This document shows positions 12,799-53,807 of a stretch of 64,000 nucleotides of DNA, in pieces. Position numbers and translations under genes: made by a program. Location of the stretch: positions 1,088,001 through 1,152,000 of the forward strand of contig CBDFGR010000002.1 in the NCBI GenBank assembly GCA_965247115.1, in the 5' to 3' direction. Below the pieces are notes generated by a model. It made no database searches and had not been told where the DNA came from. It saw only the letters and a program-made list of their open reading frames with translations. Position 1 is the first letter of the stretch; each line of letters begins with the position of its first letter. This stretch comes from Myxococcota bacterium. GTDB taxonomy: Bacteria > Myxococcota_A > UBA9160 > SZUA-336.

Positions 12799-13332
12799 CT
12801 ACCGGATTTCGAGCGACTCGAACTCCTGATCTCTCATGCTCACGTGGACAGGCGGGAGTGGCCAGTCGATTCCAAAAGCCGGGGACGCGTAGTGGTAGCC
12901 ATGGGACGCCTCGGGAACGTAGGGAGTGGACATGTGGTAGAGGACCTCGCTCTCCGGCTTCAGGGTCTGAAAGCCGTGAGCGAATCCCCGTGGGATGTAC
13001 AACTGCCGGCGATTTTCCGCAGACAACTCGGTAGCATACGACTGGAAACGCGTACTTGAGCCCGCGCGCAGATCCACGATCACATCAAAAATCCGACCCT
13101 GTGTACAGCGAACCAACCGCGCCTCTTCGTAGGGGGCACTCTGAAAGTGCATTCCCCGGAGCGTTCCGCGCTCTCGGTTGAACGAGATGCTGCTCTGCAC
13201 GACTGCCGGCTCGAGTCCGTTCTTCACGAATTCCTCGGCGCAGAAGGTTCTCGCAAGGAAGCCTCGCTCATCGGTGTGCGCCTCAACCTCGAGCACGAAG
13301 GCCCCCGACAGCGAGGTCTGTTCGAACCGCAT
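12799..13332 (-). CDS. rfbC: NDP-4-keto-6-deoxyhexose 3,5-epimerase (RmlC/RfbC family)
   Basis: DERGFLAR, GTLRGMHFQ, DVIVDLR.GS.T, LYIPRGFAHGFQTL. Confidence 0.9.
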   Translation of the reverse strand: MRFEQTSLSGAFVLEVEAHTDERGFLARTFCAEEFVKNGLEPAVVQSSISFNRERGTLRGMHFQSAPYEEARLVRCTQGRIFDVIVDLRAGSSTRFQSYATELSAENRRQLYIPRGFAHGFQTLKPESEVLYHMSTPYVPEASHGYHYASPAFGIDWPLPPVHVSMRDQEFESLEIR

Positions 13333-13403
13333 CGATCCTCCCGGCTTGACGCCGATCTGCCGGGTGAATCATAACGTCTACTCGACTACTTGAGAGGAGC
13401 TGC

Positions 13404-14174
13404 ATGAAGGTCGTTGTACTTGCAGGAGGGCTGGGGACTCGGCTGTCGGAGGAGACGGGACGCCGCCCCAAGCCCTTGGTGGAGATCGGCGGCCGTCCCT
13501 TGCTCTGGCACCTGCTGAACTACTACGCCAGCTTCGGGCATGACGAGTTCTGTGTCGCCCTCGGCTACAAGGGCTGGATGATCAAGGAGTACTTCCTGAA
13601 TTACGCACTCTTGGCTGCGCCCGAGCTCAGCGTCGAGCTGGGATCAAAGAAGGTTTCGACACGGGGAGGGCACGGCGAGGACTGGAAGGTGCACCTGATC
13701 GACACAGGCGAAGAGACGATGACCGGTGGACGCTTGCGACGCCTGCGCTCGCGGCTCGAAGGCGAGACTTTCATGCTCACATACGGTGATGGCCTCTCAA
13801 ACGTAGACCTGGACGCGCTCCTTGAGTTTCACCGCTCACACGGGAAGCTCGCCACGGTCACGGCCGTTCGTCCGCCCGCCCGTTTCGGGGATCTCCTGAT
13901 CGACGGCGATCGAGTAGTGGAATTTGTCGAAAAGCCCACCGCGGGGGAGGGTTGGATCAACGGGGGCTTCTTCGTCTTCGAGCCACCGGTCATCGACTAC
14001 GTCGAGGGCGACGGCACTTCTCTGGAACAGGAGCCATTGAGGGCCCTTGCCCGCGACGGACAGCTCCATGCTTACCATCATCCCGGCTTCTGGCAGTGTG
14101 TTGACACGCTACGCGAGCTGCGCATCCTCGAGCAGCTCTGGGAGAAGGGCTCTCCCCCCTGGTCGGGCCGGTGA
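13404..14174 (+). CDS. rfbF: Glucose-1-phosphate cytidylyltransferase
   Basis: LAGGLGTRLSEET..RPKPLVEIG, DTGEETMTGGRL, TYGDGLS, INGGFFV, GFWQCVDTLRE. Confidence 0.95.
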   Translation: MKVVVLAGGLGTRLSEETGRRPKPLVEIGGRPLLWHLLNYYASFGHDEFCVALGYKGWMIKEYFLNYALLAAPELSVELGSKKVSTRGGHGEDWKVHLIDTGEETMTGGRLRRLRSRLEGETFMLTYGDGLSNVDLDALLEFHRSHGKLATVTAVRPPARFGDLLIDGDRVVEFVEKPTAGEGWINGGFFVFEPPVIDYVEGDGTSLEQEPLRALARDGQLHAYHHPGFWQCVDTLRELRILEQLWEKGSPPWSGR

Positions 14175-14418
14175 ACTCGGACGAAAGGAGCGTTCTCGCC
14201 ACCGGGGCGACCGGCATGGTCGAGTCGTGGCTTTGCTAGTCCGAGGTGAGGACTTCAACTTCAGGCTCGTGTCGCGGTCAACAGAGATCGTGGATCAGAT
14301 CTCCTACGCGATGAAGCGCGATCTCCAGCCTGTGGTGCTCGATCAAGCGAAGCTCGAGCTCCGTAGTCAGTCGCTCAGCTCGGCCAAGGCCCCCTGGTAC
14401 CGGAACTACCTGACGTGA
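14171..14418 (+). pseudogene. rfbG: Deleted remnant of an RfbG-like NDP-glucose 4,6-dehydratase
   Basis: Frame 1 VLATGATGMVESWLC* (Rossmann N-terminus); other frame GEDFNF..EIVDQI..DLQPVVLDQAK.ELRSQSLSSAKA-WYRNYL* (C-terminus); lies between rfbF and the methyltransferase. Confidence 0.75.
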
Positions 14419-15644
14419 ATCCCATCGAGATCTGCCGCTCCTGCGGCTCCCCCGATCTAGAGATAGTGCTGGCGCTCGGTCCGATGCCTTTGGCCAACGC
14501 GCTTCTTCCACCAGATCAACTCGACAGCCCCGAGCCCCGACCCGCATTGACCTTCGCGATCTGCTCCCGGTGCTCGCTCGCGCAGATCCTGGAGAACGTC
14601 TCCCCCGAGGAGTTGTTCTCCAACTATGTCTACTTCTCGAGCTACTCGGACACCATGCGGAAGCATGCGAAGGACAGCGCCGACGAGCTGATCGCTTCCC
14701 GTCGGCTCGGCTCCCGGAGCCTGGTCATCGAGGTCGCGAGCAACGATGGGTACCAACTCAGGCACTTCAAACAGGCGGGGGTGCCCGTGCTTGGCATCGA
14801 GCCCGCCAGGAACGTTGCAGAGGTGGCCGTTGGGAATGGAATCCCGACCCGAGTCGAGTTCTTCGGCGACGTCCTCGCAGGTGAGTTGGTGAAAGAAGGG
14901 ATCCGCGCCGACGTGCTGCTCGCCTACAACGTGCTCGCCCACGTGCCCGACCTGAACGGCTTCGTCTCCGGAATCCAGCGCGTGCTCAAGCCTGATGGTG
15001 TCGCCGTGATCGAGGTGCCCGACGTCAGCAACCTGCTCGGGAGCTGTGAATTCGACACGATCTACCACGAGCACATGTGCTACTTCTCATTGACTGCACT
15101 CGGTCCGCTCTTTGCCCGTCACGACCTCGAGGTCTACCGTGTGGACCAGATCCCCCTGCACGGAGGATCATTGCGCTTCTACTCGGCGAACAAGGGACGC
15201 AAGAGTCCGGAGAGCAGCGTGGCGCGCGTCCTCGCGTCGGAGTCGACGGCGGGGCTCGCGGACCTGAGCGCGTACACAGGCTTCGCAAAGCGCGTGGAGA
15301 CCCTTCGAGTCGAGCTCGTCGGCCAGATCGATGCTCTCATCGCTGAGGGAAAGACGCTTGCGGCCTACGGAGCGGCCGCCAAGGGCGCGACTCTGCTCAA
15401 TTACTTCGGCCTCGACTCTGGACGGATCGCATTCGCAGCAGACCGGAGCCCTCACAAACAGGGACTCTACATGCCCGGTGTTCAAATCCCGATCATCGCT
15501 GCAGAGGAGCTCGCCAAAAGGCGTCCCGACTACTGCTTGCTCCTGGCGTGGAACTTCGCAGAGGAAATTCTGGAGCAGCAAGCCTCATACAGGGCAGCTG
15601 GAGGTCGCTTCATCATTCCGCTTCCCCAGCTGCGGGTCGTCTAG
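14415..15644 (+). CDS. NDP-hexose C-methyltransferase (Zn-binding, class I SAM)
   Basis: CRSCG..LGPMPLAN..CSRCSLAQ, EVASNDG, FDTIYHEH, HGGSLR, YGAAAKG, LLAWNF. Confidence 0.92.
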   Translation: MNPIEICRSCGSPDLEIVLALGPMPLANALLPPDQLDSPEPRPALTFAICSRCSLAQILENVSPEELFSNYVYFSSYSDTMRKHAKDSADELIASRRLGSRSLVIEVASNDGYQLRHFKQAGVPVLGIEPARNVAEVAVGNGIPTRVEFFGDVLAGELVKEGIRADVLLAYNVLAHVPDLNGFVSGIQRVLKPDGVAVIEVPDVSNLLGSCEFDTIYHEHMCYFSLTALGPLFARHDLEVYRVDQIPLHGGSLRFYSANKGRKSPESSVARVLASESTAGLADLSAYTGFAKRVETLRVELVGQIDALIAEGKTLAAYGAAAKGATLLNYFGLDSGRIAFAADRSPHKQGLYMPGVQIPIIAAEELAKRRPDYCLLLAWNFAEEILEQQASYRAAGGRFIIPLPQLRVV

Positions 15645-16561
15645 CTCTCGAGGCTCTTGCGGAGCCACTCGACTGTATCTGCGAGCCCCGATTCCAGGCT
15701 GTGGGAGGGCTGCCAGCCAGTGCTTCGGAGCTTGCGAGCATTGGCGACGATCATCGGTGGCTCGTTCGGGTCCGTATCGACCGCGCCGAACTCCAGGTCG
15801 CGGGGGCCCCGACCCGTGAGAGTCGCCAGGGTCTCGATGACGCGCCGCAGACGTACTGGCTCACCGGTACCAACGTTCACAGTCCCAGACAGACCCGTGT
15901 CTCCGAGCGCGACAAGGGCTGAAGCGCAGTCGGCTACGTGGACGAAGTCCCGGATCTGGTTGCCGTGGGAGCACCGGGCGCGCTCGCCACGGAGCAGAGC
16001 GAGCACGACGGAGGGAATTAGGCGCGTGCGCGGCTCGCCGGGACCAAACGGAAAGAAGAACCGAGCCCAGGTGAAATTCGTGTCGACCACCTCGCCATAG
16101 GCCAAAATGGCCTCGCGGGCCGCGTTCTTCGTCGTGCCGTAGAAGCTGCTCGGCTCGGATGGCGTGCTGTCCTCACTGAGGAAGCCGTGCTGCCACGCAT
16201 ACTCCGCGCAGGTCCCCACAGCAACGACGTGCGCACAGCCGAGGTCGGCGAGGATTCGCGCCAAGTCGAGCGTCATGCTCACACAGCTCAGGTTCTCGGG
16301 CGCAGACCAAAAGCGCTGCGGCTCAACGTACCACGCCAGGTGGAACGCACGTTCCGGCCTCAGCTCGCGCAGCTGCGATTCGTACGTCTCTGGGTGCTCG
16401 AGATCAGCCTCGATCACCTTCACGCCCCCGAGGTAGTCATCCACCTTGAGCGTAGACTCTCCGGGGCGGATGATTGCAGAGACCTCCGCGCCTCTGGATA
16501 CGAGCAGCCGGCCGAGGTGAGAGCCGACGAAGCCCGTCATCCCTGTCAGGAGTATGCGCAT
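15641..16561 (-). CDS. NAD-dependent sugar epimerase/4-reductase (extended SDR)
   Basis: LTGMTGFVG, HLAW, GTCAEY, YGTTK, RDFVHV. Confidence 0.9.
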   Translation of the reverse strand: MRILLTGMTGFVGSHLGRLLVSRGAEVSAIIRPGESTLKVDDYLGGVKVIEADLEHPETYESQLRELRPERAFHLAWYVEPQRFWSAPENLSCVSMTLDLARILADLGCAHVVAVGTCAEYAWQHGFLSEDSTPSEPSSFYGTTKNAAREAILAYGEVVDTNFTWARFFFPFGPGEPRTRLIPSVVLALLRGERARCSHGNQIRDFVHVADCASALVALGDTGLSGTVNVGTGEPVRLRRVIETLATLTGRGPRDLEFGAVDTDPNEPPMIVANARKLRSTGWQPSHSLESGLADTVEWLRKSLES

Positions 16562-16564: not shown

Positions 16565-17329
16565 TCATCCAACGCGACGCAGATACCCATCAGGCCAGTA
16601 GGTCACCCGCTTCTCGACATTGCCCTCGTTGAAGCGAAACGTCGGCTCCTCGCGCGCGAACTCGGGATGTCGCGAAAGGAAGTCCTGAATGGCCTCGAGT
16701 GGATTGTTCCAGCTCCAGTCCGAGGCGCTTCTCGGGGAGCCAGCGACCTGAGCCATACAACCGTCCTGAACAACGACGTACGAGCCGCTCGTAACCATTG
16801 GAGAGTAGGCGGCCAGCTCCGCCAGAACGTGCTCGCGCGTGTGCTTTGAGTCGAGGATGACGATGACCTTCTCCGCGTCCCCGACCTCGACGCGCACCCG
16901 ATCGACAACTTCGGGATCGATCGAGGAACCCTCGATCAGCGAAATCAGCGACGATAGTCTGTGCTCCTCGATCGCCCTTCGGTTGTGTGGGCGAATCTCG
17001 ACGTCGATGCCAACGACGCGGCCTCGGCCCAAGGCCTTGCAGAGCGAGGCGTAGAACACGAGCGAGCCCCCGTGAGCGACACCGGTCTCCACGATCACGT
17101 CCGGTTCTACCTCGCAGATCACCTCCTGGACGCGGAGGATATCCTCCGGCATCTGGATCAGGGGGCGTCCAAGCCAGGTGAAGCTGTAGACGTACTTGTT
17201 GTCCCAGCCCACGCGGAGCCAGGCGTCCGAGACGACCTCGAAGGCCTCGCTGGAGTCCATCGGATACGACCTGGTTCCACCCTCGCCCTCGACGGTAACC
17301 AGGCCTTTTTCGGGGTCGATGTGGATCAC
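16565..17329 (-). CDS. CmcI/cephalosporin-hydroxylase-family (sugar O-)methyltransferase
   Basis: YSFTWLGRPLIQ.P.D, PDVIVETGVAHGGSL, ILDSKHT..HVLAEL. Confidence 0.9.
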   Translation of the reverse strand: MIHIDPEKGLVTVEGEGGTRSYPMDSSEAFEVVSDAWLRVGWDNKYVYSFTWLGRPLIQMPEDILRVQEVICEVEPDVIVETGVAHGGSLVFYASLCKALGRGRVVGIDVEIRPHNRRAIEEHRLSSLISLIEGSSIDPEVVDRVRVEVGDAEKVIVILDSKHTREHVLAELAAYSPMVTSGSYVVVQDGCMAQVAGSPRSASDWSWNNPLEAIQDFLSRHPEFAREEPTFRFNEGNVEKRVTYWPDGYLRRVG

Positions 17330-17550: not shown

Positions 17551-17581
17551 AGGACTGGCTTCACACCTAGGGACTGGCCTC
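17544..17581. repeat. 19-bp tandem duplication
   Basis: ACACCTAAGGACTGGCTTC / ACACCTAGGGACTGGCCTC (2 mismatches) between two converging ORF ends. Confidence 0.7.
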
Positions 17582-18782
17582 ACTCGTAGGCGCTCAGCTG
17601 ACGGATGGCGCTCTGAACATCTTCGTAGTTCAGGGTCCGGTCCTCCTGGAGAGCCGCCCCAACGATCCCCTCCGAGAGTCGGTACTTTCTGACTCGGCCA
17701 CGCGCCGTTCTGGCTCTCAGAGTGGCGCCACGCCTCTGCAGCAAGAGACTGAGCGATCCACGTAGTCGGAGGCCAGGCAGCCAGCGGTCTCGCAACCTCC
17801 GCAATCCGCGGCTTCGTCGCACCCCCTCGAGCAGGCTCGACCCGCTCGGCTCGAGACGGGGCCAGAGACCTTCCAATGTTTCGTCCTGGCTGGCTCCTCG
17901 ACTCAGCTGATCGCCTAGGTAGTCGAAGAGGTCTGGACGCAGGTACGGAGACAGGTACGACAGGTGGAGGTAGTCGATCAACTTGCTCAACTCGGGGGGA
18001 GGGAGGGAGCTTCCCCTCTCGATCACAGCATCGACGAGAAGCGCTCGGTACGTGACGTAACTCCTGAACAGATCATCCGGAGAGTCGACCAGCCACTCCA
18101 GGGGATGCCAGTGCTTGTAGCTCGCGGACGGACCGAGGCTCCGTCCGTAGTAGAGAAGAGGAAGGTGGGCGATCTTACCCTCCACGACGGTCAGGGCGCC
18201 CGAGAGCAACTCCTGGCCGAGCAAACTGTCTAGCGGCTGGACCTTCCCCAGAACCACCTGAAGGATCGAGCTCCGGTACACGCTGTAGGTAACTGCCTGG
18301 TAGTCATCAAAGAACGCCTGTAGGCGTTCGATCGTGCTGGGCTGGTCCATGGACACGCGGATCGGAAGGAGCGAAGTAATGTCGAGCTTTCGACCCTGAT
18401 GGAAGGTGAAGTACCCGCCCTGCGCGGCAGCGAAGTCGGGATGCGCCCCGAGATAGCCGACCAGACGTGGGAGGCCATCAAGAAGAACGACATCATCATC
18501 GCCGCACAGCGCGCAGAACTCGGTACGCACCTCGAGCGAGCCGCGCCAGAACTTCTCGAAAGGCGAGATCCCCCCAGGGAAGGTCAGATGCTCCACGTCC
18601 AGCTTCAAGCTGCCAACCAGATCGGCGCTTCGACTCCGGCTCCCTTCACTTCCTGAGTCCAGGACCAGGATGCGGAAGTCCACCGAGTGGAGCTCCAGGT
18701 AGGTCAGGAGTCGTCGAAGAGCGTCCGGGCGATCGCAGGTAGGGACGATCAACGTGAATTTCGCGTCTAGACCGTTCGCCAA
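17580..18782 (-). CDS. GT2-like glycosyltransferase (TIGR00180-type), paralog of 50831-52024
   Basis: FTLIVPTCDRP..L.RLL.YL, ILVLDSG, LCGDDD, YQAVTYSVYR, ELLSGAL. Confidence 0.8.
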   Translation of the reverse strand: MANGLDAKFTLIVPTCDRPDALRRLLTYLELHSVDFRILVLDSGSEGSRSRSADLVGSLKLDVEHLTFPGGISPFEKFWRGSLEVRTEFCALCGDDDVVLLDGLPRLVGYLGAHPDFAAAQGGYFTFHQGRKLDITSLLPIRVSMDQPSTIERLQAFFDDYQAVTYSVYRSSILQVVLGKVQPLDSLLGQELLSGALTVVEGKIAHLPLLYYGRSLGPSASYKHWHPLEWLVDSPDDLFRSYVTYRALLVDAVIERGSSLPPPELSKLIDYLHLSYLSPYLRPDLFDYLGDQLSRGASQDETLEGLWPRLEPSGSSLLEGVRRSRGLRRLRDRWLPGLRLRGSLSLLLQRRGATLRARTARGRVRKYRLSEGIVGAALQEDRTLNYEDVQSAIRQLSAYE

Positions 18783-18968
18783 CGCCGCCCTCTTCCTGTA
18801 CCCGCGGTGGAGCGATTACGTCCCAGGCGGTGCACCGTGCCGTCGGTATGATCGCACAAATCGACGCCCGGGGTCCGCCGTACGGCGGCCTTGCCCGGGC
18901 TCTGGGATCTTCGGTATCGTCCGTGCGATACTGACTTACGTGCTGCAGAGACGCCCGCACAGACCAGT

Positions 18969-19949
18969 ATGACGATGAGTTTGGACCACGATCAACGAAT
19001 ACACTTATTTCGGGACATGCTGCGGGTCCGCAGGGTCGAGGAGCGTATCGTCGAGCTCTATCCCGAGCAGGAAATCCGCTGCCCTACCCATCTCAGTATC
19101 GGCCAGGAGGCGGTGGCCGCAGGCGTCTGCGCTCATCTCACGCGCGAAGACTACGCAATGAGCGCCCATCGCTCTCATGCTCACTATCTGTCGAAAGGCG
19201 GCGATCTCAACGCGATGTTCGCCGAGCTCTACGGCAAGGCGACTGGCTGCGCCAAGGGCAAGGGAGGGTCGATGCACCTGATCGACCGTTCCGTGGGCTT
19301 TCTCGGTTGTGTTCCAATCGTCGGGAGCACCATCCCCATCGGCGTTGGGGCCGCATTCGGCTCGATGTTACAGAATCACGATGGCCTCACGGTGATCTTC
19401 TTCGGGGATGGCGCTGCCGAGACTGGCGTGTTCCACGAGAGTCTCAACTTTGCCGCGCTGCACAAGCTGCCCGTCCTCTTCGTCTGCGAGAACAACCTCT
19501 ACTCCGTTAATACGCCGCTGTCAGCGCGTCAGCCTGACGGGCGAAAGATCACGCAGATCGCGGAGGGTCTCGGTCTCCACGCCATCCAAGGCGACGGGCA
19601 GGATGTAGAGAGCGTATACGAGGTCGCCGGCGAGATGATCTCCGTTGCCCGCCAAGGTGGCGGACCCGCCTTCGTCGAGTACGCAACGTACCGGTGGCTG
19701 GAGCACTGCGGACCCCTTACCGACACACATCTGGACTTCCGTCCCGAGGGGGAGTACGAAGCGTGGCTCGATCGCTGCCCCGTCTCGCTAGCTCGGGACC
19801 GTCTGACCTTGGAGCGGGTGCTCGATGACAGTGCGCTCGCCGCGATAGAGCTCGAGATCGCGGAGGAGATAGAAAAGGCGGTTGACCACGCCAAGACGAG
19901 CCCCTTTCCTCAGCGTGCCGAGCTAACGGCGAACGTGTGGGCCTCCTAG
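18969..19949 (+). CDS. TPP-dependent dehydrogenase E1 alpha-like subunit
   Basis: HLSIGQEA, HRSHAH, GKGGSMH, FFGDGA..G.FHESLN, CENNLYS, TYRWLEHCGP. Confidence 0.92.
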   Translation: MTMSLDHDQRIHLFRDMLRVRRVEERIVELYPEQEIRCPTHLSIGQEAVAAGVCAHLTREDYAMSAHRSHAHYLSKGGDLNAMFAELYGKATGCAKGKGGSMHLIDRSVGFLGCVPIVGSTIPIGVGAAFGSMLQNHDGLTVIFFGDGAAETGVFHESLNFAALHKLPVLFVCENNLYSVNTPLSARQPDGRKITQIAEGLGLHAIQGDGQDVESVYEVAGEMISVARQGGGPAFVEYATYRWLEHCGPLTDTHLDFRPEGEYEAWLDRCPVSLARDRLTLERVLDDSALAAIELEIAEEIEKAVDHAKTSPFPQRAELTANVWAS

Positions 19950-19962
19950 CGGCGAGGCCAGC

Positions 19963-21660: not shown

Positions 21661-21670
21661 CGGATACCGC

Positions 21671-22604: not shown

Positions 22605-23198
22605 TTGGGAAACAACGATCTTGATCAGACCGGAGTCGGTGGAGGCGTCCGGGCCGTCTTCCTGGACCGAGATGGGGTCATCAACGATGTCGTTGTACGA
22701 GACGGGAAGCCCTACCCGCCCTCGTCCTTGAACGCACTCAGCATCCTACCAGGAGTTCCAGAAACGCTGGCCGCGCTGCATGTCGCTGGGCTTCGCCTGA
22801 TCGTCGTGACAAATCAACCCGACGTCGCCTCCGGCATCCAGCAACGCCATGTGGTAGAAGAGATCCACGACTGGCTTGCGAGGACTCTACCCATCGATGA
22901 GATCAAGGTCTGCTTTCACGTCGACTCCGACGGTTGTGGCTGTCGAAAGCCGCGACCCGGCATGTTGGAGACCGCCGCCACCGAGTGGGGCCTGAACCTC
23001 GAACAGAGCTTCTTGGTGGGTGATCGCTGGCGAGACATCGAGGCCGGGCACGCGGCGGGATGTCAAACACTCTGGATTGATCGTGGCTACGGAGAGCGAA
23101 AGCCAGAGGCTCCTGATCATGTAGTGTCCTGCCTCACCGACGCTGGTCGGATCATCCTCAACGCGCTGGGTGCTGATAGACGGGGGATCTCGACATGA
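22605..23198 (+). CDS. gmhB: HAD-IIIA phosphatase (GmhB-like)
   Basis: FLDRDGVIN, VVTNQPD, CFH..DGCGCRKPRPGM, VGDRWRDIEAG. Confidence 0.88.
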   Translation: MGNNDLDQTGVGGGVRAVFLDRDGVINDVVVRDGKPYPPSSLNALSILPGVPETLAALHVAGLRLIVVTNQPDVASGIQQRHVVEEIHDWLARTLPIDEIKVCFHVDSDGCGCRKPRPGMLETAATEWGLNLEQSFLVGDRWRDIEAGHAAGCQTLWIDRGYGERKPEAPDHVVSCLTDAGRIILNALGADRRGIST

Positions 23199-25197: not shown

Positions 25198-25210
25198 GGA
25201 GGATGAACGG

Positions 25211-26752: not shown

Positions 26753-26773
26753 GCTGGGGAAATTGAGCGAGTC

Positions 26774-34542: not shown

Positions 34543-34554
34543 GGGGTCGTTGCG

Positions 34555-37596: not shown

Positions 37597-37718
37597 CTCC
37601 TACTCAGCCGTCGGTTCGCTCAAGCAGGCCCCCTCGTATCGATTCAGCGACTAGGCGCTACCGTAGTGTATCATGATCACGAGCACTGGCTGCGTTCGTG
37701 CGCCAAGGAGACGTTTCG

Positions 37719-38054: not shown

Positions 38055-38122
38055 GTCGGCGCTCCTAGGGCACCTCTCGCAGAGAGTCTGACGCCCTGAA
38101 GGCCTTCCTCGGCTCCAGAGGA

Positions 38123-45555: not shown

Positions 45556-46723
45556 CTCCGCCTCGCTCTGCCCTCTCCGCAGCCTCGAGGATGCTCCGCG
45601 CGCCGACACTTCCACTCGTTCCGAGGTTGTAGACGCAGCGATCGCGAATCGCGCGCAGCCTCTCACGCTGACGCTCGGGAGTCGCACAGAGCTCGGCGAT
45701 CCGCTTGCGCGCCTCCGCAACATCGTCGGGAGCAACCACCGACCCGATTTCCGCTCGAATCCCGGCCTCTAGCGGCTCCATCCCCAGTTTCTCCCACCTC
45801 GGGTTGTTCACCTTCCGCGGAGTATCGACGAACAGCACGGGTCGTTCCAGCCCGAACGCGTACTCAAGGGCCGCTCCCGACCAGTCGCTGATCATGATGT
45901 CCGAGGTGTGTAGGGATTCCTGGCCGCTCACATCAGTTTCGACTGTGAGAGATCCGCCTCCTCCAAAGCGTGACCGCAGGCTCGCGGGCAGCTCAGGAAA
46001 CCGGCGAGTTGTCATCGGGTGAAGTCTCACAGTCAGCCTCAGACCCTCTTCCAGGAGTCCCGCGATCCAGTCGTCCGCCCACTCGGACTCGATGAGCGAG
46101 CCTCCTCCCCACGAAGGCGCCATGAGGACGTGAAGTCCTGAGCGGTCGGTTGGATCAGAAGCGGACCGTTTCGCGGCCTGCGCCCGAATCTCGTCGAGCC
46201 GCCCGTACCCGTGCTCGATGAGGCGCCGCTCAGGCAGCCCGTACACGTCCTCGGCTCTCCTGAGCTCCTCGACATGGTGAGGTCCGGCGCAGAGGAGCGT
46301 ATCATAATGATCAAACGCTCCTTCCCTGTAGATCATGTGCGTACTCACGAGCGAATGGAAGACGTATATGTAGTGGACGGGGTGAGAAGAGCGTTTCAGA
46401 TGAAAGCGGTCGAGATCGGGGAGCGTCATCACGAGCACCGAAGCCTTGAGCCCGCGAAACAGGATCGTCCGGATCGACCCTGAACCGATGCAGAAGGCCC
46501 GGACGTTCGGATGCCCGGCCCGGAAGATGGGATCGTCGGCCTCCGAGGTCAGATAGCAGATGGCATGGCCGCGCTGGCAGAGCTCGGAGATGATCGGTTG
46601 AAAGTGTGGCCAGTCGTGAAGACCTTCGGCATAGAACACGATGCGTCGCGCGTCCCTGGGCAGGGCCGAGAAGCGCCGCAGCTCGGACCATTCCGCACCA
46701 AGTCGCTTGAGCGCCGTGAACAT
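45548..46723 (-). CDS. CDP-glycerol glycerophosphotransferase (TagF/TagB)-like protein
   Basis: [56 protein letters not shown]. Confidence 0.8.
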
Positions 46724-46778
46724 CCAGTCGCTTGTGCCCCGTCGGATCAGGTTTGATCACCGGACGTACCTGAGAAAC

Positions 46779-47030
46779 CTAGTCTGAGTCGTTGGCCGGG
46801 TGAACTTCTCGTCGGGCGTCGTCGCCTGCGGCCTTGCCGCCAAAGACTGCCTTGAGGCGACGCCAGTAGGCCTTTGCCAGGAACGCGGCTGCAGTGATGC
46901 TCGCGATTGCCGCCTGAAGGAGCATGCTGGTAGTTCCAGCATCGATATAGGCGAGCGCATCACGCGGGAAGGCTACGACCAAGACGGCCAGGGGAACGCC
47001 GCTCCAACGAGCAAATCGACGGAGGCTCAC
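46779..47030 (-). CDS. Small membrane protein with AYID(A/P)GT.S motif
   Basis: LAVLVVAFPRDALA-YIDAGTTSMLLQAAIASITAAAFLAKAYWRRLK: signal-like segment, TM helix, basic tail; start uncertain. Confidence 0.65.
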   Translation of the reverse strand: MSLRRFARWSGVPLAVLVVAFPRDALAYIDAGTTSMLLQAAIASITAAAFLAKAYWRRLKAVFGGKAAGDDARREVHPANDSD

Positions 47031-47107
47031 CGGGGTGGGCGGGGGGGATGCGCGCACGAGCCCCATCGTATAGATGCTCCCGAATCGGATCAACTTCGAG
47101 CCTTGCA

Positions 47108-48202
47108 TCAGCTCTTCCAGGCCGGAGGAGTCAGAAGATCGAGCACCCTTGCTCCAGCCAAGCCCGCGATCGCCAGGAGCCTGAGGCCCAGCCTGCGTCC
47201 ACTGCTTGCGACGGCGGCTCGAGAGGCAAACACCTCCGCGCGGTGGCCCAGCATCCATTGCAGGTAGCGCCAACCCAGGCCCCAGTGGACGGGGTTCGTC
47301 ACCAGGACGGTGAGCATCTGACGGCCAAACGGCGAAAAGAGACCTGGGCGGGCTCTGAAGATCGGAGCCACATCTCGGTTTCGAGGCTCCTTTACCGCAC
47401 TCACAAGTGCCTTCAGCACTCGTCTTTGACGCACCGAATCGGACATCCCGGATCCGGAGTAGGTCCCGGGAGTCTCGCGCATCAGCGCTAGCGTCTCGGG
47501 TACCACACACGCTCCGTGACGCAGAGCGAGGATGTAGAAGACGAACCACTCCGAGTGCCATTGGAGCTCTGGGCGAAACGCACCTGCCTCGAGGAGGGCG
47601 CCCCGGCGAGCGAGCACGGTATTCCCCGACATCCACAAATAGCTGGTGGCAAGCCTGCGCTTCAGGGCAGCTGGAGGCAGAAAGCGAGCTTCCTTACCGA
47701 GGTCGAATGCCAGCCCGAGGTCGAATGCCAGCCCTGTGGCCGAGTCGCCCAGATACTCCCGAATGCGCTCCGTTCCATCCTCGAAGACAGCCAGCCGAGA
47801 GAAGCACACTCCCGCCTCCGGATGAGAGCGGAGGATCCTCATGTTGCGCTCCAGGAAGCGGGGGAGAAGCCGGTCGTCAGCAGATGCCCACACCACGAAG
47901 TCCATCGACGCCAGGGTCAGGGCGCGCTCGATGGAGGTCATGAGCCCTCGGTTCCTCTTGTTGCGGACAAGGGTGACGAAGGGAAATCGGCGCACGAATC
48001 CCTCGATCACAGCCACGCTGTCATCGGTGGAGCCGTCGTCCACCACGATGACCTCGTCCGGCTGGAGCGTCTGGCCACAGATCGCTCCCAGGGAGTCGGG
48101 GAGATATCTGGCGTGGTTGTAGTTGCACAAGAGGATCGACACCGTCGGTCGGCCTCGTGGCTCTCTGTGCGCTTCCACGGCCGACCGACTCAGCGGGCCC
48201 AT
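47108..48202 (-). CDS. Glycosyltransferase family 2 (paralog of 31498-32454)
   Basis: SILLCNYNHA, VDDGSTDDS, WASADD, ELQWHSEWF; true start probably slightly downstream. Confidence 0.88.
   Translation of the reverse strand: MGPLSRSAVEAHREPRGRPTVSILLCNYNHARYLPDSLGAICGQTLQPDEVIVVDDGSTDDSVAVIEGFVRRFPFVTLVRNKRNRGLMTSIERALTLASMDFVVWASADDRLLPRFLERNMRILRSHPEAGVCFSRLAVFEDGTERIREYLGDSATGLAFDLGLAFDLGKEARFLPPAALKRRLATSYLWMSGNTVLARRGALLEAGAFRPELQWHSEWFVFYILALRHGACVVPETLALMRETPGTYSGSGMSDSVRQRRVLKALVSAVKEPRNRDVAPIFRARPGLFSPFGRQMLTVLVTNPVHWGLGWRYLQWMLGHRAEVFASRAAVASSGRRLGLRLLAIAGLAGARVLDLLTPPAWKS
47697..47734. repeat. Perfect 18-bp in-frame tandem duplication inside the GT2 gene
   Basis: CCGAGGTCGAATGCCAGC x2, giving GLAFDL-GLAFDL. 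Confidence 0.85.
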
Positions 48203-50805
48203 GCTCGCTCGAAGAAGCCCGGGTTGAGGGCGTCAGATCGCCGCATGACTACCCGCCACGGGGCCGGCAGCTTGTATGCCGAGCGCCTGATCAGCAACCC
48301 GTCGTGAGGGTTCACGTAGCGCCTGCGCTGCTTGATGTAGATCACGCTGCGAGTCTTCGCCGCCATGAGGCCCAGGTAATGGGCAATTTGCTCCCGCCGC
48401 ATCTCGTGCAGGGAGCTGACCGTAGCGCAGGCGTCGAAGTAGCCGTCCGGAAACATCTCGAGCTGGTTGGGGGTGAGAAACGCCAGATCCGCCTGCTCGA
48501 GCTCTTCTGCAACTTCAGCGTAGCTCGAGAACGCGCGAAACTTGAAGATACGACGGTCGCTAAAGAGCCTCGAGAGGTACCACTGCGACACATAGAGCGC
48601 CGGTGGAATGTCGAAGACGACGTATCGGCAGGGGGAGGTCGCAAGGAGCACGTGTCCGAGACGGCCGTACCCTGCCCCCAATTCGGCTATCAAGGTGGGT
48701 CGATCTCGTCCTGGCTCTGACTGAGTGTAGGAAACGTCCAGCGCGTCGACGATGGCGTTCCGCTCTCGCACCGAGTTCGCGAGATCCTGGGAGATCATCC
48801 GCCCATCGCGACGAACGCGGATCGGATTCCCTAACTCAGGCTCCTCCAACTGCGCGAGCACGCCCTCGCGATCGCTCCTGAGCACGTACTCATGAAGCGA
48901 GGCAACGTAGAGTTTGTACAGCTTCAGCCGACGCTCCCGATCGTCCTTGAAGATGTAGTAGTCCTCTACCCACGATAACCACAGCCGCGGGTCGCAATCG
49001 GGATCGTCGATCTCGTAGCGCACGAGTGCGGGCATCCCGCGCCTCAGCCAGAGCCTTACCAGGTTGACGATCTTTGGATCCCAAAGCGACGAAGGAACGA
49101 AGTTGAAATAGGCCTGATTGACCGTTCGCTTGAAGTGGGGCTCGCCACCAAAACCCAGCAGTGTGGTGTGGTCTCGATTCATCACTTCCCAGAACTTCGA
49201 AGGTCGGTAGATCTCGGGCGCCGACTCGAGCTCGCCCCGCATCCGTTCGATCTCCACTCGACCTTCCGCACTCAGTAGGTTCCGCTCCACGCCCCTTCTG
49301 TGCAGATAACGAACGACATCTCCGTGATGACCAGCACTAGCCAAGGAGAGGGCCTCTCCGCCTCGTGCAGCCGCATCCGCCCCGTTCTCATGCAGGTACC
49401 TCACCAGATCCAGGTGCCCAGCGTTCGCGGCTGCGCGTAGCGGTTCATCTTCCGCTTCTCGGATGTCGGCCCCGTGCTGGTACAGCGTCCGCACCGCCTC
49501 CAGGTACCCGCCGCTCGCCGCTGCCCGCAGCGCCGCGCCATGCCCTGCGTTGGCGTCGGCACCGATCTCGAGGAGCTTCCGAAGGCTGTCGAGATCCCCT
49601 GCGCCTGCCGTTCTAATGACAGCGCCCTCGTCGAACGCGCGAGGGTCTCCGCCTCCGAGCCGGATGTATCTGGCGACCTGCGGGTGGCCGCGCGCCTCGA
49701 CTTGACGGAGCAGCTCCGCACCACACGCGCTCAGGTTGGCCCCATTTTCATGGAGATACCGCACGACGCCCATGTGTCCGCCGAGTGCAGCTCCCCGAAG
49801 TGCGGCTTCCCCTCCGGCCCGCAGGTCGCCACCGCTCGCGTGCAGGTACCTCACTACCTCCTGGTGCCCGCTTGCTGCGGCAGCCTGAAGCGCTGCGTCC
49901 GATCCTGCCCGGATGTCCGCGCCGGCCGCGTGCAGATACTCCACTGCTCCCAGGTGGCCGTTCGATGCGGCCGCGCGCAGGGCGCGGCCATCCCCCGCGT
50001 TGGCATCGGCACCGATCTGTACGAGCTGCGCCAGACCCTCCAAGTCTCCCGACCGGGCCAGGGCAACGAGGGCGTCCTCATCGAACGCACGCGGATCGCC
50101 ACCTCCGCGGCTGATGTAGCGCGCTGTCTGGCGATGCCCGTGCTCTTCGATTTGACACAGCAGCTCTGCGTCGCACGCGCCCAGGTCCGCCCCGTTCTCG
50201 TGGAGATATCGCACAACGCCCAAGTGTCCGCCGAGTGCCGCTCCCTGAAGTGCGGCTTCCTCTCCGGCTCGCAGGTCGCCACCGCTCGCGTGCAGATACT
50301 CCACTACCCCCAGGTGGCCGTTCGACGCGGCCGCGCGCAGCGCCTCGTCCCCGCCGGCGTGGATGTCGACTCCGTTCGTGTGCAGATACATCACGACGCT
50401 CACGTGGCCATTGCACGCTGCGCCCTGGAGGGCAGGCTGCCCAGCAGCTCGGATGTTGACTCCGTTTTGATGCAGGTACTCGACCACCTCAAGATGCCCG
50501 CTGGCCGCCCCACCGCGCAGCGCAGAGTCGCCTCCTGCCCGAATGTCCCCGCCAGCACCGTGCACGTATCGCATCACCTCCAGGTGACCTCGGGAAGCCG
50601 CCTCGATGAGCGCAGCGTTATCTCCGGCTTCGACTGCGGCGCCTCGTTGAACCAGGGAGGTGGCGATCTCCAGATTGCCTGCAGCGGCTGCCGCTAGCAG
50701 CGCGTCATTCAGGTCGAGCTGGGAGCAAGTCCCGCTGCTGAGCATGCGATCCACACCAGGGAGATCCCCGGTCGAGGCAGCGGCACACAGCTCGTCGTGT
50801 GTCAT
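48190..50805 (-). CDS. Ankyrin-repeat protein fused to a putative sugar O-methyltransferase (TIGR04371-like)
   Basis: ~500 aa of 30-aa repeats (AL..AA..GHL.VV.YLH..GAD); C-terminal YRPSKFWE, IAELGAGYGRL, VFDIPPALYVSQWYL, SLHEM. Confidence 0.85.
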   Translation of the reverse strand: MTHDELCAAASTGDLPGVDRMLSSGTCSQLDLNDALLAAAAAGNLEIATSLVQRGAAVEAGDNAALIEAASRGHLEVMRYVHGAGGDIRAGGDSALRGGAASGHLEVVEYLHQNGVNIRAAGQPALQGAACNGHVSVVMYLHTNGVDIHAGGDEALRAAASNGHLGVVEYLHASGGDLRAGEEAALQGAALGGHLGVVRYLHENGADLGACDAELLCQIEEHGHRQTARYISRGGGDPRAFDEDALVALARSGDLEGLAQLVQIGADANAGDGRALRAAASNGHLGAVEYLHAAGADIRAGSDAALQAAAASGHQEVVRYLHASGGDLRAGGEAALRGAALGGHMGVVRYLHENGANLSACGAELLRQVEARGHPQVARYIRLGGGDPRAFDEGAVIRTAGAGDLDSLRKLLEIGADANAGHGAALRAAASGGYLEAVRTLYQHGADIREAEDEPLRAAANAGHLDLVRYLHENGADAAARGGEALSLASAGHHGDVVRYLHRRGVERNLLSAEGRVEIERMRGELESAPEIYRPSKFWEVMNRDHTTLLGFGGEPHFKRTVNQAYFNFVPSSLWDPKIVNLVRLWLRRGMPALVRYEIDDPDCDPRLWLSWVEDYYIFKDDRERRLKLYKLYVASLHEYVLRSDREGVLAQLEEPELGNPIRVRRDGRMISQDLANSVRERNAIVDALDVSYTQSEPGRDRPTLIAELGAGYGRLGHVLLATSPCRYVVFDIPPALYVSQWYLSRLFSDRRIFKFRAFSSYAEVAEELEQADLAFLTPNQLEMFPDGYFDACATVSSLHEMRREQIAHYLGLMAAKTRSVIYIKQRRRYVNPHDGLLIRRSAYKLPAPWRVVMRRSDALNPGFFERAWAR

Positions 50806-50830
50806 GAACGCGCTACTAGGCTGCCAGACG

Positions 50831-52024
50831 TCATTCGTAGGCGTTCAGAGTCTGGATGAGCCGATCGATCGTATTGGCCGGCAGCTCAGCGTGGGGCTGG
50901 CTCAGCGACGCAAGGAACTCTTTGTACAGGCGGTATTCTCGTCGTCGGCCACTCGTGGTCGCGGTGGAGACGGTCCGATCTCCTGCCAGTCGAAATCGTC
51001 GAACAAGCTCGTGCATCCGTGTCCCAGGGACGACGCGAGCTCGAGCTGCTCGTACGAGCCGAGCCAGGTGGCTGTTGCTGGGTTGCGAGGCGGCCGCGGC
51101 GAGGCGCGGCCAGTATCCTCGCATGATCTCTCCCCGTTCCTCATCCTTCATCAAGGCACTGACCAGGTAGTTCATGATCTCCGGGGTGATGTACTCGGAC
51201 AGGTACTTCAGGTGGATGAGATCGATCAGCTTCAGAAGCGCTGTCGGGGTAGTCTGATCGGATCCGTACTTGCCGAACGCCCGAAGTAGGATTGCACGAT
51301 ATCTCCCGTAGTCCGCAACCAGCTCCTCTGGCGAGGAGATCATGAATTCGACGGGGTGCCAGTGCTGATACGGCTCCGATGAACCGAGAGAACGCCCGTA
51401 GTAGAGGAGTGGCAACCTCGCGACCTTCCCCGCAACGGCCGTCAACGCACCTGCGAGAAGCTCCCGACCAAGCAGGCTTTGCACTCGTTGTACTTCGCGA
51501 AGAACCTCACGCGCCACATCAGTCCGATAGAGACCGTACGTTACGGCCTCGTATCCATTCATCGTTTCTCGCAGCCGCAGCAGCGGCTCGTCCTGATCAA
51601 AGGAGGGTCTCGAGTACACAATCGAAGTGATGCCGAAGTGAACGTTGTCGTAGAACGAGAAGTACCAACCGTGAGCTGCGCTATAGTCAGGACGGGCGTG
51701 GAGAAACTCAAGTAGAGGAGGGAGAGCGTCCAACACGACGACATCGTCGTCTGCGCATATCGAGCAGAACTCCGTCTTGACCTCCTGACATCCGCTCCAG
51801 AACTTCTCCCACGGCATGACCGAGGAGCCGTACGATACGAAACGAACATCCAGATCGATTCTGTCAGCCAGGCTGGAATTCGCCGTCTTGCTCTCATCGC
51901 TTCCCGAATCGAGCACGAGAATTGGGAAGTCGGCCGACTGACGGGCGAGATATTCGAGTAGTCGCGCCAGCTGGGACGTGCGATTGTAAGTGGGGATGAG
52001 GAGGGTGAAGTCCTTCGAGTTCAT
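50831..52024 (-). CDS. GT2-like glycosyltransferase (TIGR00180-type)
   Basis: FTLLIPTYNR, ILVLDSG, ICADDD, YEAVTYGLYR; paralog of 17580-18782. Confidence 0.82.
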   Translation of the reverse strand: MNSKDFTLLIPTYNRTSQLARLLEYLARQSADFPILVLDSGSDESKTANSSLADRIDLDVRFVSYGSSVMPWEKFWSGCQEVKTEFCSICADDDVVVLDALPPLLEFLHARPDYSAAHGWYFSFYDNVHFGITSIVYSRPSFDQDEPLLRLRETMNGYEAVTYGLYRTDVAREVLREVQRVQSLLGRELLAGALTAVAGKVARLPLLYYGRSLGSSEPYQHWHPVEFMISSPEELVADYGRYRAILLRAFGKYGSDQTTPTALLKLIDLIHLKYLSEYITPEIMNYLVSALMKDEERGEIMRGYWPRLAAAASQPSNSHLARLVRAARARVVPGTRMHELVRRFRLAGDRTVSTATTSGRRREYRLYKEFLASLSQPHAELPANTIDRLIQTLNAYE

Positions 52025-52181
52025 CTAGCGCAGTTTATCGCGCGCAAGGGGATTGTAGCTCAGATGAGCCTAAGTAGTTGAAAACAAGGAACTCCCCGGC
52101 GGGGACCCGGGATCTCAGGTTCGCGATATACTCCGACCACGAGCTCATCGCAAGTCCCAGCTCGGCCCCCAGTAGATCCCA

Positions 52182-53807
52182 ATGAACCGACTCATCAGGT
52201 CCGCAGCATTAACGCTCCCTCCTATCCGCCGCCTCGTCGACGGACTAGACGAGGTCTCGCAGGAGCGCGATGTCCTGGCGCAGCATCGGGACATCGTTGC
52301 GCGGAACCTGGAGGCAGCCCTCCGCGAGCGTGACAGGCTCGCACTGGAGTTTGAGGCGCTACGCTCCTGCCTGCCTTCTGCGCCGGAGCTCGACCGGGTT
52401 GCGTGGGACTCCCTTCCAAAGGCGAACTTCGACGAGCTGGGACGGCTCGTAATGGTCGCCGAGAGCTGCGTGGATCGTGAGCGTAGGGACTTCCTGGAGA
52501 GACTCGACATACTCGGAGCGCAGTACGCGGCCGCGAGAGGGCCGTTGTCGATCGACGAGAAAATCAGACTGATCAAGGTCCTGAATCTCCTCGCGATCAA
52601 GTATGAGTACGTGAATCGATTTTCTTATGTCACAGCCCGACCGCTTGGATTTCTCCTGGATGCCAATAACTCGTGCCAGCTGGGATGTGAGGCGTGCATA
52701 CACACTTTTGACTCGGAGTTCGCAAAGAAGTTCTTCAACGTTCCCCGAAAAGGCGTAATGAAGCGCGACGTACACGACCGCATCATGGATGAGGCCGGGA
52801 TCTACAGCTTCCTCGCGTCCTACTACAACAAGAGCGAGTCCCTCCTCAACAAGAACATTCACGAATTCCTACGGGCCGCGAGCAAGCGCCGGATCTACAC
52901 GCGAATCAGCAGCAACCTCTCGTTTCCAAAGCTGGACGCGGACTCCATTGTCCTGTCAGGCTTGAATATGCTGGATGTATCCGTCGACGGGGCGACCCAG
53001 TCGACCTACGAGCAGTATCGCCGCGGCGGAAACATCGACTGGGTTTTCGAGAACGTCCGGCAGCTGGTGGCTGCAAGGAAGCGTCACTCGAGAACGACAC
53101 CTGTAATTCGCTGGAAATTCCTCACGTTTGAACACAATATCCACGAGGCAGAAGAGGCGTTCCGAAGGGCCGTAGATCTCGAGTTCGACGAGATCTCCTT
53201 CAGCATGCCCTACCCGGGACCGACAGTCGTTCCCGCGCCTCATCCAGCCTATACCCCTGACGGCACAGCCACGATTCACACGCTCAACAGGTCTCTTCAA
53301 GAGAGTTGGGTCTTTGAAACAGAGAACGGCGACATCTCCGAGGCGGTCGACGCCGCGCTCTCCGGGAAGTTCGTAGAGAGGTATGACCGGCTCAGGTCGG
53401 CGCACGGGAGCGGATTCGACGAGAGGGCTCCGGGACGAGACCATTGCGACTGGCTGCACTACAACACCGCCTTCGATGCTCATGGCGTCATTCGTCCATG
53501 CTGCGAAGGGGACTACAAGGACCGGGGAGGGTTTGACTTCAGCGATCTTCGCCGCGATGAGGACTTTCTCAATACACCGAGATACGTAGTCGCTCGAAAG
53601 TTCGCCATGGGGGAGCGAGCACTCAGTGGTGGGGCGGACCAGCTCGGCTGTTTCGGGTGCAAATACCGCCCGGGACCGGAGGCGAACCTGGGAGGCGTCG
53701 ATGGGTGGCTTCAGTTCTTTGGAAACAGGATCAGCGAAGATCTGTTGACCAACGATCCCCTCGTTGCCCTGTCCCAGTGGTCCAAGCACAACCATGAAGG
53801 GGTCTAG
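52182..53807 (+). CDS. Radical SAM protein with SPASM-like C-terminus and N-terminal coiled coil
   Basis: CQLGCEAC, SVDGATQSTYEQYRRGG, KFLTFEHN, C..L...G.IRPCC, CFGC. Confidence 0.8.
   Translation: MNRLIRSAALTLPPIRRLVDGLDEVSQERDVLAQHRDIVARNLEAALRERDRLALEFEALRSCLPSAPELDRVAWDSLPKANFDELGRLVMVAESCVDRERRDFLERLDILGAQYAAARGPLSIDEKIRLIKVLNLLAIKYEYVNRFSYVTARPLGFLLDANNSCQLGCEACIHTFDSEFAKKFFNVPRKGVMKRDVHDRIMDEAGIYSFLASYYNKSESLLNKNIHEFLRAASKRRIYTRISSNLSFPKLDADSIVLSGLNMLDVSVDGATQSTYEQYRRGGNIDWVFENVRQLVAARKRHSRTTPVIRWKFLTFEHNIHEAEEAFRRAVDLEFDEISFSMPYPGPTVVPAPHPAYTPDGTATIHTLNRSLQESWVFETENGDISEAVDAALSGKFVERYDRLRSAHGSGFDERAPGRDHCDWLHYNTAFDAHGVIRPCCEGDYKDRGGFDFSDLRRDEDFLNTPRYVVARKFAMGERALSGGADQLGCFGCKYRPGPEANLGGVDGWLQFFGNRISEDLLTNDPLVALSQWSKHNHEGV

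Follow-up and report, generated by a model that had tools for sequence, protein, structure and literature searches.

The window analysed here, a 64,000-nucleotide stretch of a Myxococcota bacterium genome (positions 1088001-1152000 of contig C2 in genome G000; 5.17 Mb, 98% complete), contains between positions 12799 and 53807 a locus of 37 genes with 11 strand switches, bounded by the end of an rmlC-like gene and the end of a radical SAM gene, in which an intact set of genes for methylphosphonate (MPn) synthesis lies among genes for rare sugars, glycosyl transfer and ABC-type glycan export. The original prediction, made from the sequence alone, had placed at these same bounds a locus for an ABC-exported surface glycan decorated with MPn. 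Open reading frame (ORF), Pfam and NCBIfam scans returned the inventory it had listed: five glycosyltransferases of GT2 or TIGR04440 type (starting at 17580, 30549, 31498, 47108 and 50831), four methyltransferases (a sugar 3-C-methyltransferase at 14415, a CmcI/rhamnosyl O-methyltransferase at 16565, one at 29868 and an ankyrin-TIGR04371 fusion at 48190), a single radical SAM protein and Wzm/Wzt, with no Wzx or Wzy family among the scanned locus proteins.

The phosphonate genes lie on the minus strand, are all full-length and, counted from an adjacent TagF-like gene through pdh, overlap by 4-8 bp. They are predicted to encode phosphoenolpyruvate (PEP) mutase (PepM) fused to a PF12804 nucleotidyltransferase (NTase; 43897..45555; TIGR02320 over cut-off, with an EDK-X5-NS motif), phosphonopyruvate decarboxylase (Ppd; 42737..43900; TIGR03297 over cut-off), a stand-alone LicC/PntC-like cytidylyltransferase (41997..42740; PF12804; PDB 1jyk E = 1e-12, 6pd1 E = 3e-8), methylphosphonate synthase (MpnS; 40637..42004) and phosphonoacetaldehyde reductase (Pdh, a PhpC-like Fe-ADH; 39489..40640), a set that appears complete for MPn synthesis. 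Pdh scored 338 bits with TIGR03405, under the cut-off of 423.7; this was its best-matching family by far, and its position in the operon fits. The two PF12804 domains, one fused to PepM and one stand-alone, are 27% identical, and LicC outscores Tde1415 in sequence match to the latter. Ten genes in all, from the glycosyltransferase ending at 52024 to pdh at 39489, all lie on the minus strand, spaced by -13 to 83 bp, and a scan of the intergenic gaps of this tract gave no terminator-like site on that strand; those upstream of the TagF-like gene, with gaps of at most 83 bp, encode a small protein with a YIDAG motif, a GT2 glycosyltransferase, the ankyrin-O-methyltransferase and a TIGR04440 glycosyltransferase.

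The two-cupin MpnS (455 amino acids) aligns end to end with that of Nitrosopumilus maritimus (PDB 6b9s residues 14-456, E = 2.6e-143), far ahead of class II HEPD (6b9r, E = 2.7e-88) and PhpD (E = 3e-4), scores which rule out HEPD or HppE as its identity. It carries equivalents of the 2-His-1-Gln iron ligands (H148/Q152/H190) and of F162 and I184, where the solved class II HEPD 6b9r has Tyr and Gly; by the account of Born et al. in 2017, these positions reportedly decide the product. Siding with the N. maritimus enzyme over HEPD at the discriminating positions, the protein is in all probability a true MpnS, and the MPn operon of the original prediction stands. Among copies found elsewhere, that of a Thaumarchaeote (L023) has the Tyr/Gly pair, as in class II HEPD, and the SAR202 copies L030, L031 and L035 a mixed Tyr/Ile pair, so that their products are uncertain. 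Records titled Nanoarchaeota, Woesearchaeota and Methanosarcinales hold complete MpnS operons (L002-L006, L016, L019, L021, L026, L032), the last of these being unexpected because MpnS needs oxygen.

Among relatives the gene is scarce: mpnS was found in none of 40 sampled relatives and in two of 225 genomes of the class, G000 included, and pepM in 33 of the 225. The sister species G002 (95% complete) gave no match for mpnS, for pepM over cut-off or for the higher-carbon-sugar block described below. Since the window MpnS falls in no well-supported clade of a tree (quick search, 47 rows, three short loci left out), no donor can be named for it; its host is a rare MpnS carrier outside the taxa given in the accessible parts of PMC9381506. 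C-P lyase PhnJ was not found in G000.

Immediately upstream of pepM, and absent from the account given in the original prediction, lies a gene for a 391-residue TagF/TarL-like protein (45548..46723, minus strand; weak PF04464 match), a candidate CMP-methylphosphonate transferase. Its model (pLDDT 94.7, from 88 sequences) has a GT-B fold and aligns with TagF (3l7i) at Z 21.4 and a root-mean-square deviation (rmsd) of 5.3 over 347 residues, and with TarL at Z 20.9. Because UDP-GlcNAc 2-epimerases score an equal Z (21.6), the fold alone does not give a TagF-like function. A phmmer search with the protein returned no match in the PDB, and a profile search reached TarL (E = 2.8e-4) through HP and D-x-S motifs. 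H123 and H235 are invariant; the conserved histidines of TagF/TarL have a catalytic role. With TagF/TarL and the Cps3D/Bcs3-type polymerases the protein shares the GT-B fold, an N-terminal helix (Z 19.7-21.4, rmsd 4.6-5.6) and both motifs, but its identity to them is 11-16%, and no CDP-glycerol or CDP-ribitol pathway is present in the locus, none of the 37 genes being of the TagD/TarI type that would supply these precursors. We therefore describe it as a protein that probably works like TagF, and do not class it as TagF.

Genomic context is stronger evidence for this role than the fold. Nine of the 225 class genomes carry the gene, with pepM in every case no more than 3.5 kb away, although one copy is partial with a stop and the genomes include kin that are not independent. 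The family itself is large (1443 matches among 7999 candidates scored). In a metagenomic survey of the best 80 of 486 loci, 38 were at least 6 kb long, some being near-duplicates and one the source of the queries; 19 of these carried a PPDK-like kinase-NTase fusion and/or a C26 amidotransferase with an NTase, nine phosphonate genes, five an NTase only and five none of these. An NTase was present in 31 of the 38; the commonest other neighbour was a membrane sulfatase-like gene (28 of 38, three being self-matches of queries), and YidC occurred in nine. From their Pfam architecture we take the kinase- and amidotransferase-type neighbours to be counterparts of Cj1416-1418. The family thus appears to accompany various pathways whose end product is a CMP-activated phosphorus head group, a pattern to be expected of their transferase, and the window protein likely attaches MPn to an exported surface glycan. 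A wider role, as the general transferase for CMP-activated MPn, aminoethylphosphonate (AEP) and phosphoramidate on microbial surfaces, including those of marine Thaumarchaeota, is marginally favoured.

The survey also revealed recurrent arrangements of these neighbours. The phosphoramidate-type cassette, comprising an NTase fused to a PPDK-like kinase, a C26 amidotransferase and an NTase, is widespread (L115, L123, L151, L173, L127 and others) and pairs with the TagF-like gene, often with YidC, instead of with Campylobacter-type O-methyl phosphoramidate (MeOPN) transferases. Three AEP-type pepM operons (G051, locus L085; G052, L088; G005, L087) show a TagF-like-YidC fusion or tandem, preceded by a DUF3413-sulfatase and followed by a PhyH dioxygenase; as a speculation, YidC might act there as a lipid scramblase.

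Two further genes of the window could act with the TagF-like protein. The small hydrophobic YIDAG-motif protein (46779..47024, minus strand) has homologues in L023, L029 and L087 that precede TagF-like genes or are fused to them. Proteins of this kind, sharing Y[IL]D[APL]GT[GTS]S (46779-47024; L091:16541-16795; L018, L023, L029, L087), match no Pfam family; on contig C3 of the same genome such a gene precedes a methyltransferase-like/sulfatase-like pair, which we take to be NoeA/NoeB-like. The other is a membrane-anchored protein of the alkaline phosphatase superfamily (35914..37596, minus strand). Its model (pLDDT 85) combines an N-terminal helical bundle with an alpha/beta domain, D177, T218, H369 and D433 are invariant in 43 sequences, and its profile matches sulfatases and LtaS (2w5q, E = 3e-4). 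The layout and residues fit LtaS/EptA, and the protein may serve in the periplasm as a phospho(no)transferase or as a hydrolase.

The rare-sugar pathways foreseen in the original prediction were recognised through Pfam, NCBIfam and PDB matches as two sets. The first, at the left of the locus, comprises an RmlC-type 3,5-epimerase (12799..13332, minus; PF00908, TIGR01221 just under cut-off), glucose-1-phosphate cytidylyltransferase RfbF (13404..14174, plus; TIGR02623 over cut-off), an NDP-sugar 4,6-dehydratase-like remnant with an internal deletion (14174..14415, plus), a sugar 3-C-methyltransferase of MtmC/TcaB9 type (14415..15644, plus; PDB 4rv9, D-mycarose 3-C-methyltransferase, E = 4e-89), an extended short-chain dehydrogenase/reductase (SDR), likely a 4-ketoreductase (15641..16561, minus; PF01370), and the CmcI/rhamnosyl O-methyltransferase (16565..17329, minus; PF04989, E = 1e-72); together these suggest a C- and O-methylated 6-deoxyhexose. 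They are followed by one TIGR04440 glycosyltransferase (17580..18782, minus; NCBIfam) and by a thiamine pyrophosphate-dependent E1 alpha/beta pair (18891..21024, plus; PF00676, PF02779/02780), likely a two-carbon branching enzyme, a role that we presume from yersiniose/eurekanate chemistry. The second set occupies 21055-30527: a SIS isomerase (21055-21660, plus; PF13580), a transaldolase (21671-22423, minus; TIGR02134 over cut-off) and a higher-carbon-sugar block (22605..30527, plus) with a GmhB-like HAD phosphatase, two SDRs, a domain-swapped HldE-like NTase/kinase, Gfo/Idh/MocA and UDP-glucose-dehydrogenase-like proteins, a further SDR and a methyltransferase. All enzyme classes of the lincosamide NDP-octose pathway are present here (transaldolase, SIS, kinase, phosphatase, NTase, UDP-glucose-dehydrogenase-like plus Gfo, epimerase), and the product would be a C7/C8 sugar, a heptose also being possible. 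The HldE-like family is common (6519 matches at E <= 1e-100 among 8000 candidates), and one of its closest named homologues is a Myxococcota record. The block recurs in four of 224 other class genomes (G065, G005, G003, G013) at 49-76% identity; in two of the four, wzm/wzt and a gene for a radical SAM protein are adjacent to it.

Two GT2 glycosyltransferases (30549-31484, plus; 31498-32454, minus) and a 4,6-dehydratase-like SDR (32485-33474, minus), all from Pfam/NCBIfam, follow, and a third GT2, the ankyrin-repeat/sugar O-methyltransferase fusion and the second TIGR04440 glycosyltransferase (together 47108..52024, minus) are co-oriented with the phosphonate operon. A variant contig 93-97% identical to the fusion gene at 48190-50805 (run X3 record 23, depth 2.2) lacks about 720 bp of repeats, so that strains may differ in repeat number; a role of the repeats as a ruler of chain length is conceivable. 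At the right edge lies the radical SAM protein (52182..53807, plus; CxxxCxxC), with a heptad-like N-terminal region, whose homologues occur as fusions with a methyltransferase, DUF4214 or TPR domain. A second low-GC rare-sugar locus on C3 (about 2454000-2494000; L091, L092) contains RfbF, three C-methyltransferase-like genes, an E1 pair, a GHMP kinase with an NTase, glycosyltransferases and WecG; it may complement or feed the sugar pathway of the window.

Export through Wzm/Wzt, as originally predicted, is well indicated: wzm and wzt (33625..35907, plus; PF01061, and PF00005 with PF14524) encode a transporter whose Wzt ends in a carbohydrate-binding module (CBM) matching PDB 2r5o (E = 4.6e-11), the combination that marks CBM-dependent ABC O-antigen export. 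Chain-terminator candidates are the radical SAM protein with its heptad-like N-terminus and the ankyrin-O-methyltransferase, and no WbdD-type protein was identified. Elsewhere in G000 there are LpxC, one WcaJ-type priming enzyme and one short OPX gene; no second wzm was found with the locus Wzm as query, and Wzx searches gave no PF01943 match and one weak match to PF13440. The glycan may be carried by lipopolysaccharide (LPS), capsule or protein.

These elements can be assembled into a route from PEP to a decorated glycan. PepM, Ppd, Pdh and MpnS would convert, in turn, PEP to phosphonopyruvate, this to phosphonoacetaldehyde, this to 2-hydroxyethylphosphonate (2-HEP) and, with Fe(II) and O2, 2-HEP to MPn; these activities are known for the families, and here the genes would supply them by identity. 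Activation of MPn to CMP-MPn would then fall to one or the other PF12804 domain, by analogy with PntC and LicC. The TagF-like protein would place the phosphonate on a sugar hydroxyl as an ester at the cytoplasmic face, releasing CMP. The acceptor glycan, primed in trans by the single WcaJ-type gene product, would contain a 3-C-methyl, O-methyl 6-deoxyhexose from CDP-glucose, for which the SDR at 32485 or the C3 locus would have to provide the dehydratase. The transaldolase-SIS-HldE-like block would contribute a C7/C8 sugar, a two-carbon-branched sugar may also be present, and the CBM of Wzt implies that the exported chain would be capped. We give this reading, in which MPn is activated with CTP, the TagF-like enzyme transfers it to a lipid-linked rare-sugar glycan and Wzm/Wzt exports that glycan, a probability of about 0.45; that MPn reaches this ABC-exported glycan at all, by cytoplasmic attachment or by a periplasmic route, appears moderately probable. 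The sole evidence that it reaches the Wzm/Wzt substrate is the local operon structure together with the scarcity of other exporters. That MPn is itself the non-reducing-end cap, with the TagF-like enzyme as terminator and the CBM reading the cap as export signal, so that MPn would mimic, with a C-P bond, the methyl-phosphate cap known from Escherichia coli O9a or Klebsiella O7, is very doubtful.

In the periplasmic alternative, which we regard as rather unlikely, the TagF-like protein would load MPn on a lipid carrier, the YIDAG protein (YidC in relatives) would aid its crossing, and the membrane enzyme at 35914-37596 would transfer it to a surface glycan after export. The frequency of sulfatase-like membrane proteins and YidC around TagF-like genes and the TagF-YidC fusions in G051 and G052 speak for such a division of labour, as do the invariant Asp/Thr/His/Asp set, the weak LtaS match and the presence of homologues of the membrane enzyme beside an MpnS-family gene in L023 and L029. 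The best profile relatives of the membrane enzyme, however, are hydrolytic sulfatases, a 26% paralogue lies in the C3 locus without phosphonate genes, and the 21-kb locus with the closest operon (L010) has no gene for it; characterised TagF/TarL enzymes, moreover, act on glycans and are not known to act on bare lipids. An unlikely reading would make the operon a passenger of a variable island, with MPn attached not to the Wzm/Wzt substrate but to another acceptor in the envelope, such as a glycan on protein, the LPS core, a periplasmic glucan or whatever the C3 locus produces. The phosphonate module is self-contained and usually lies apart from glycan clusters (L010, G051, G052, G005, G039, G173), and the genome offers a second rare-sugar locus; against this, the operon is tightly packed behind two glycosyltransferases and an O-methyltransferase, and no exporter was found at the C3 locus among the ORFs scanned. 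That the attached group is instead 2-HEP, with MPn a side product or released through an antiporter, or that partial decay has left the glycan pathway with little output, is highly improbable. Two NTase domains could serve two phosphonates, the locus has one remnant and insertion sequence (IS) scars beside it, and facing pdh is a gene for a GlpT/PgtP-type organophosphate antiporter of the major facilitator superfamily (TIGR00881 at 192 bits, under cut-off), which together with a DUF5992 protein gene (PF19454) occupies 37698..39481 on the plus strand. The phosphonate genes are nevertheless full-length and overlapping, release of MPn would depend on the direction and substrate of the antiporter, and 49 other mpnS loci contain no homologue of it.

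Several observations weigh against the proposal that a TagF-like enzyme loads MPn onto the Wzm/Wzt glycan. Comparison was made with these 49 loci (34 of at least 12 kb, 15 shorter), searched mostly with proteins of the window locus, so that unrelated glycosyltransferases are undercounted. Of the mpnS-like genes, 42 had pepM nearby, 39 ppd, 38 pdh, 29 an NTase and nine a TagF-like gene, and none had wzm or, at 30% identity or more, wzt, five ABC matches of 23-27% being dropped; wzm was likewise absent from all 38 TagF-like loci. The closest operon, in an Acidobacteriota record (L010), has the same six genes in the same order at 47-65% identity, flanked by unrelated genes; among the eight of 20 ORFs scanned in its 21-kb locus no glycan gene, glycosyltransferase or wzm was recognised, and no HldE-like orthologue was found in that genome. 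In the four other class genomes with the sugar block, pepM lies on another contig in three, a pairing of non-independent kin that we do not use as support, and a search of the fourth did not find it; G065 has its wzm/wzt-linked sugar block at one locus and an AEP-type pepM cluster (Wzx/Wzy) at another. Within G000, the dehydratase next to rfbF is a deletion remnant, its C-terminal piece 43% identical over 53 residues to an intact SDR in the C3 locus; PF04932 found no O-antigen ligase among 16 candidates in this 98% complete genome, a search that can miss divergent ligases; and the lack of any PF05159 (KpsS/KpsC) match leaves G000 outside the group 2/3 ABC capsule type. A precedent from Prochlorococcus SB points the same way and also favours another acceptor: gene-neighbourhood reasoning had suggested a polysaccharide, but the protein fraction proved to contain the phosphonate (PMC8931226). 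The embedding of mpnS with wzm/wzt and rare-sugar blocks was not seen near the 49 other mpnS genes, and no conserved MPn-glycan system was found near mpnS genes or in the class genomes. Co-occurrence of phosphonate and glycan-export genes in relatives, on which the original prediction had staked its glycan-phosphonate combination, therefore fails; what survives of it is a plausible route to an ABC-exported MPn-decorated glycan, consisting of two cytidylyltransferase-type domains, the TagF-like protein and co-oriented glycosyltransferases, and not a coherent conserved system.

The notion of an MPn-decorated surface glycan is an already published hypothesis, of which the gene mixture of this locus is a variant. 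In the accessible parts of the sources, an MPn-modified exopolysaccharide was proposed for N. maritimus (PMC9381506), and mpnS neighbourhoods are described as rich in glycosyltransferase, phosphotransferase and sulfatase genes (PMC9381506; bioRxiv 2020.11.04.368217; PMC8942020). The N. maritimus and SAR11 clusters (MpnS PDB 6b9s/6b9t), as far as described, share PepM-Ppd-Pdh-MpnS with a nucleotidyltransferase near glycan and sulfatase-like genes; unlike them, the window locus has a high-GC diderm host, an NTase-fused pepM, probable translational coupling with the TagF-like gene, and a wzm/wzt and rare-sugar setting. PntC-type PF12804 domains are reported, in what could be consulted of PMC6697681, to activate AEP with CTP, and Pnt pathways likewise have such domains both PepM-fused and stand-alone (compare the 6pd1 match), but there the substrate is AEP with LicD-like transferases or glycosyltransferases nearby, whereas here MPn is presumed and the transferase is TagF-like. 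In the accessible account, characterised CBM-dependent systems export only capped chains, via the CBM (PMC11231755); those of E. coli O9a and Klebsiella pneumoniae O4/O7/O12 share Wzm/Wzt with a C-terminal CBM and a locus free of Wzx/Wzy, and differ in that here no WbdD-type methyltransferase-kinase-coiled-coil terminator and no WaaL match was identified.

By annotation alone, and from partly accessible descriptions, the sugar genes resemble the lincosamide GDP-octose pathway (LmbR, N, K, O, L, Z, M; PMC12945683) in enzyme classes. They also resemble the O-antigen region of Coxiella burnetii (cbu0664-0704), which has a phosphoheptose isomerase, two epimerases, HldE-like cbu0678, a 3-C-methyltransferase and wzm/wzt, the block at 21055-30527 recalling cbu0674-0678, cbu0691 and wzm-wzt (PMC5843353, PMC13552124, PMC3539893, PMC3204966, PMC13252051). 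In contrast to both, entry here would be through CDP-glucose and the locus has no aminotransferase, and phosphonate genes occur in neither as described. LmbP we take to be the kinase of the lincosamide octose pathway. The O-methyl phosphoramidate system of Campylobacter jejuni (Cj1415-1418, transferases Cj1421/1422; PMC11800397, as far as accessible) similarly places a CMP/CDP-activated phosphorus head group onto an exported glycan, and by Pfam architecture its genes resemble the set in 19 of the 38 TagF-like loci; the window locus lacks such genes. Available literature, mainly open papers and with the supplements of PMC9381506 partly covered, held no MPn-bearing ABC-exported glycan, no TagF-like phosphonate transferase, no enzymatic activation of MPn to CMP-MPn and no Myxococcota mpnS, and named no enzyme attaching MPn to glycan.

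The locus offers a compact, coupled set for assay (the NTases, the TagF-like transferase, its LtaS-like partner and glycosyltransferases), and is most useful in singling out one protein that can be tested as the missing MPn transferase; the particular gene mixture, that of one mosaic serotype-like island, is less remarkable. MPn is turned into methane by other microbes in oxygenated water, and the leading proposal for the fuel of methane formation in oxygenated seawater is MPn esterified to dissolved polysaccharides. Sponge data, in the portion accessible, held no mpnS (PMC9999580), an absence from sponge communities on which the present locus would bear if the organism were animal-associated.

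The locus is a low-GC mosaic island, a lineage-restricted assembly of independently mobile modules, in agreement with the mosaic origin first suggested from its frequent strand switches, paralogue pairs and gene remnants, features all present. Its modules have GC contents of 0.57-0.63 (genome median 0.66), its four 10-kb bins fall in the lowest 1-7% of 516 bins, and tetranucleotide deviation lies at the 89th-98th percentile. Besides the NTase domains, the paralogues are the TIGR04440 glycosyltransferases (48.5% identity over 303 residues) and a GT2 pair (35%); the remnant is the dehydratase at 14174-14415, and modules are found apart in other genomes. A single contig of run X2 spans 33500-53400 with 0 differences, which rules out an assembly chimera there (the four runs are one sample, possibly the source of the genome, so this tests assembly only). 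At the left edge are an IS remnant and a 52-nucleotide tRNA-His 3' fragment resembling an att scar (12722..12773, plus; 92% over 52 nt to an intact tRNA-His on C3). Within 12630-12773, a 17-nucleotide sequence before the fragment recurs just downstream of the intact gene, and the region has the appearance of a terminus of an integrative element that was rearranged. The tRNA-His gene was rejected as the insertion site of the island, the regions around tRNA-His and the right flank in G002 being without locus genes. A promoter scan found no sigma-70 sites and is uninformative at this GC, and a plasmid search gave no MpnS and one weak HldE-like match.

Outside the locus, the segment 6258-12590 has two IS remnants, 98% identical to each other, that flank genes for a 1498-residue Big_12/Calx-beta autotransporter-like adhesin and an fn3 protein; part of the segment has a second copy on C3 near 2364700. 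A 1.3-kb element with about 28 near-identical copies in G000, and present in G002 at about 83% identity, represents a recent IS expansion. To the right, 58145-60534 carries a RuBisCO-like protein gene preceded by a xanthine/uracil-type permease and followed by small genes, possibly a methionine-salvage-like cluster.

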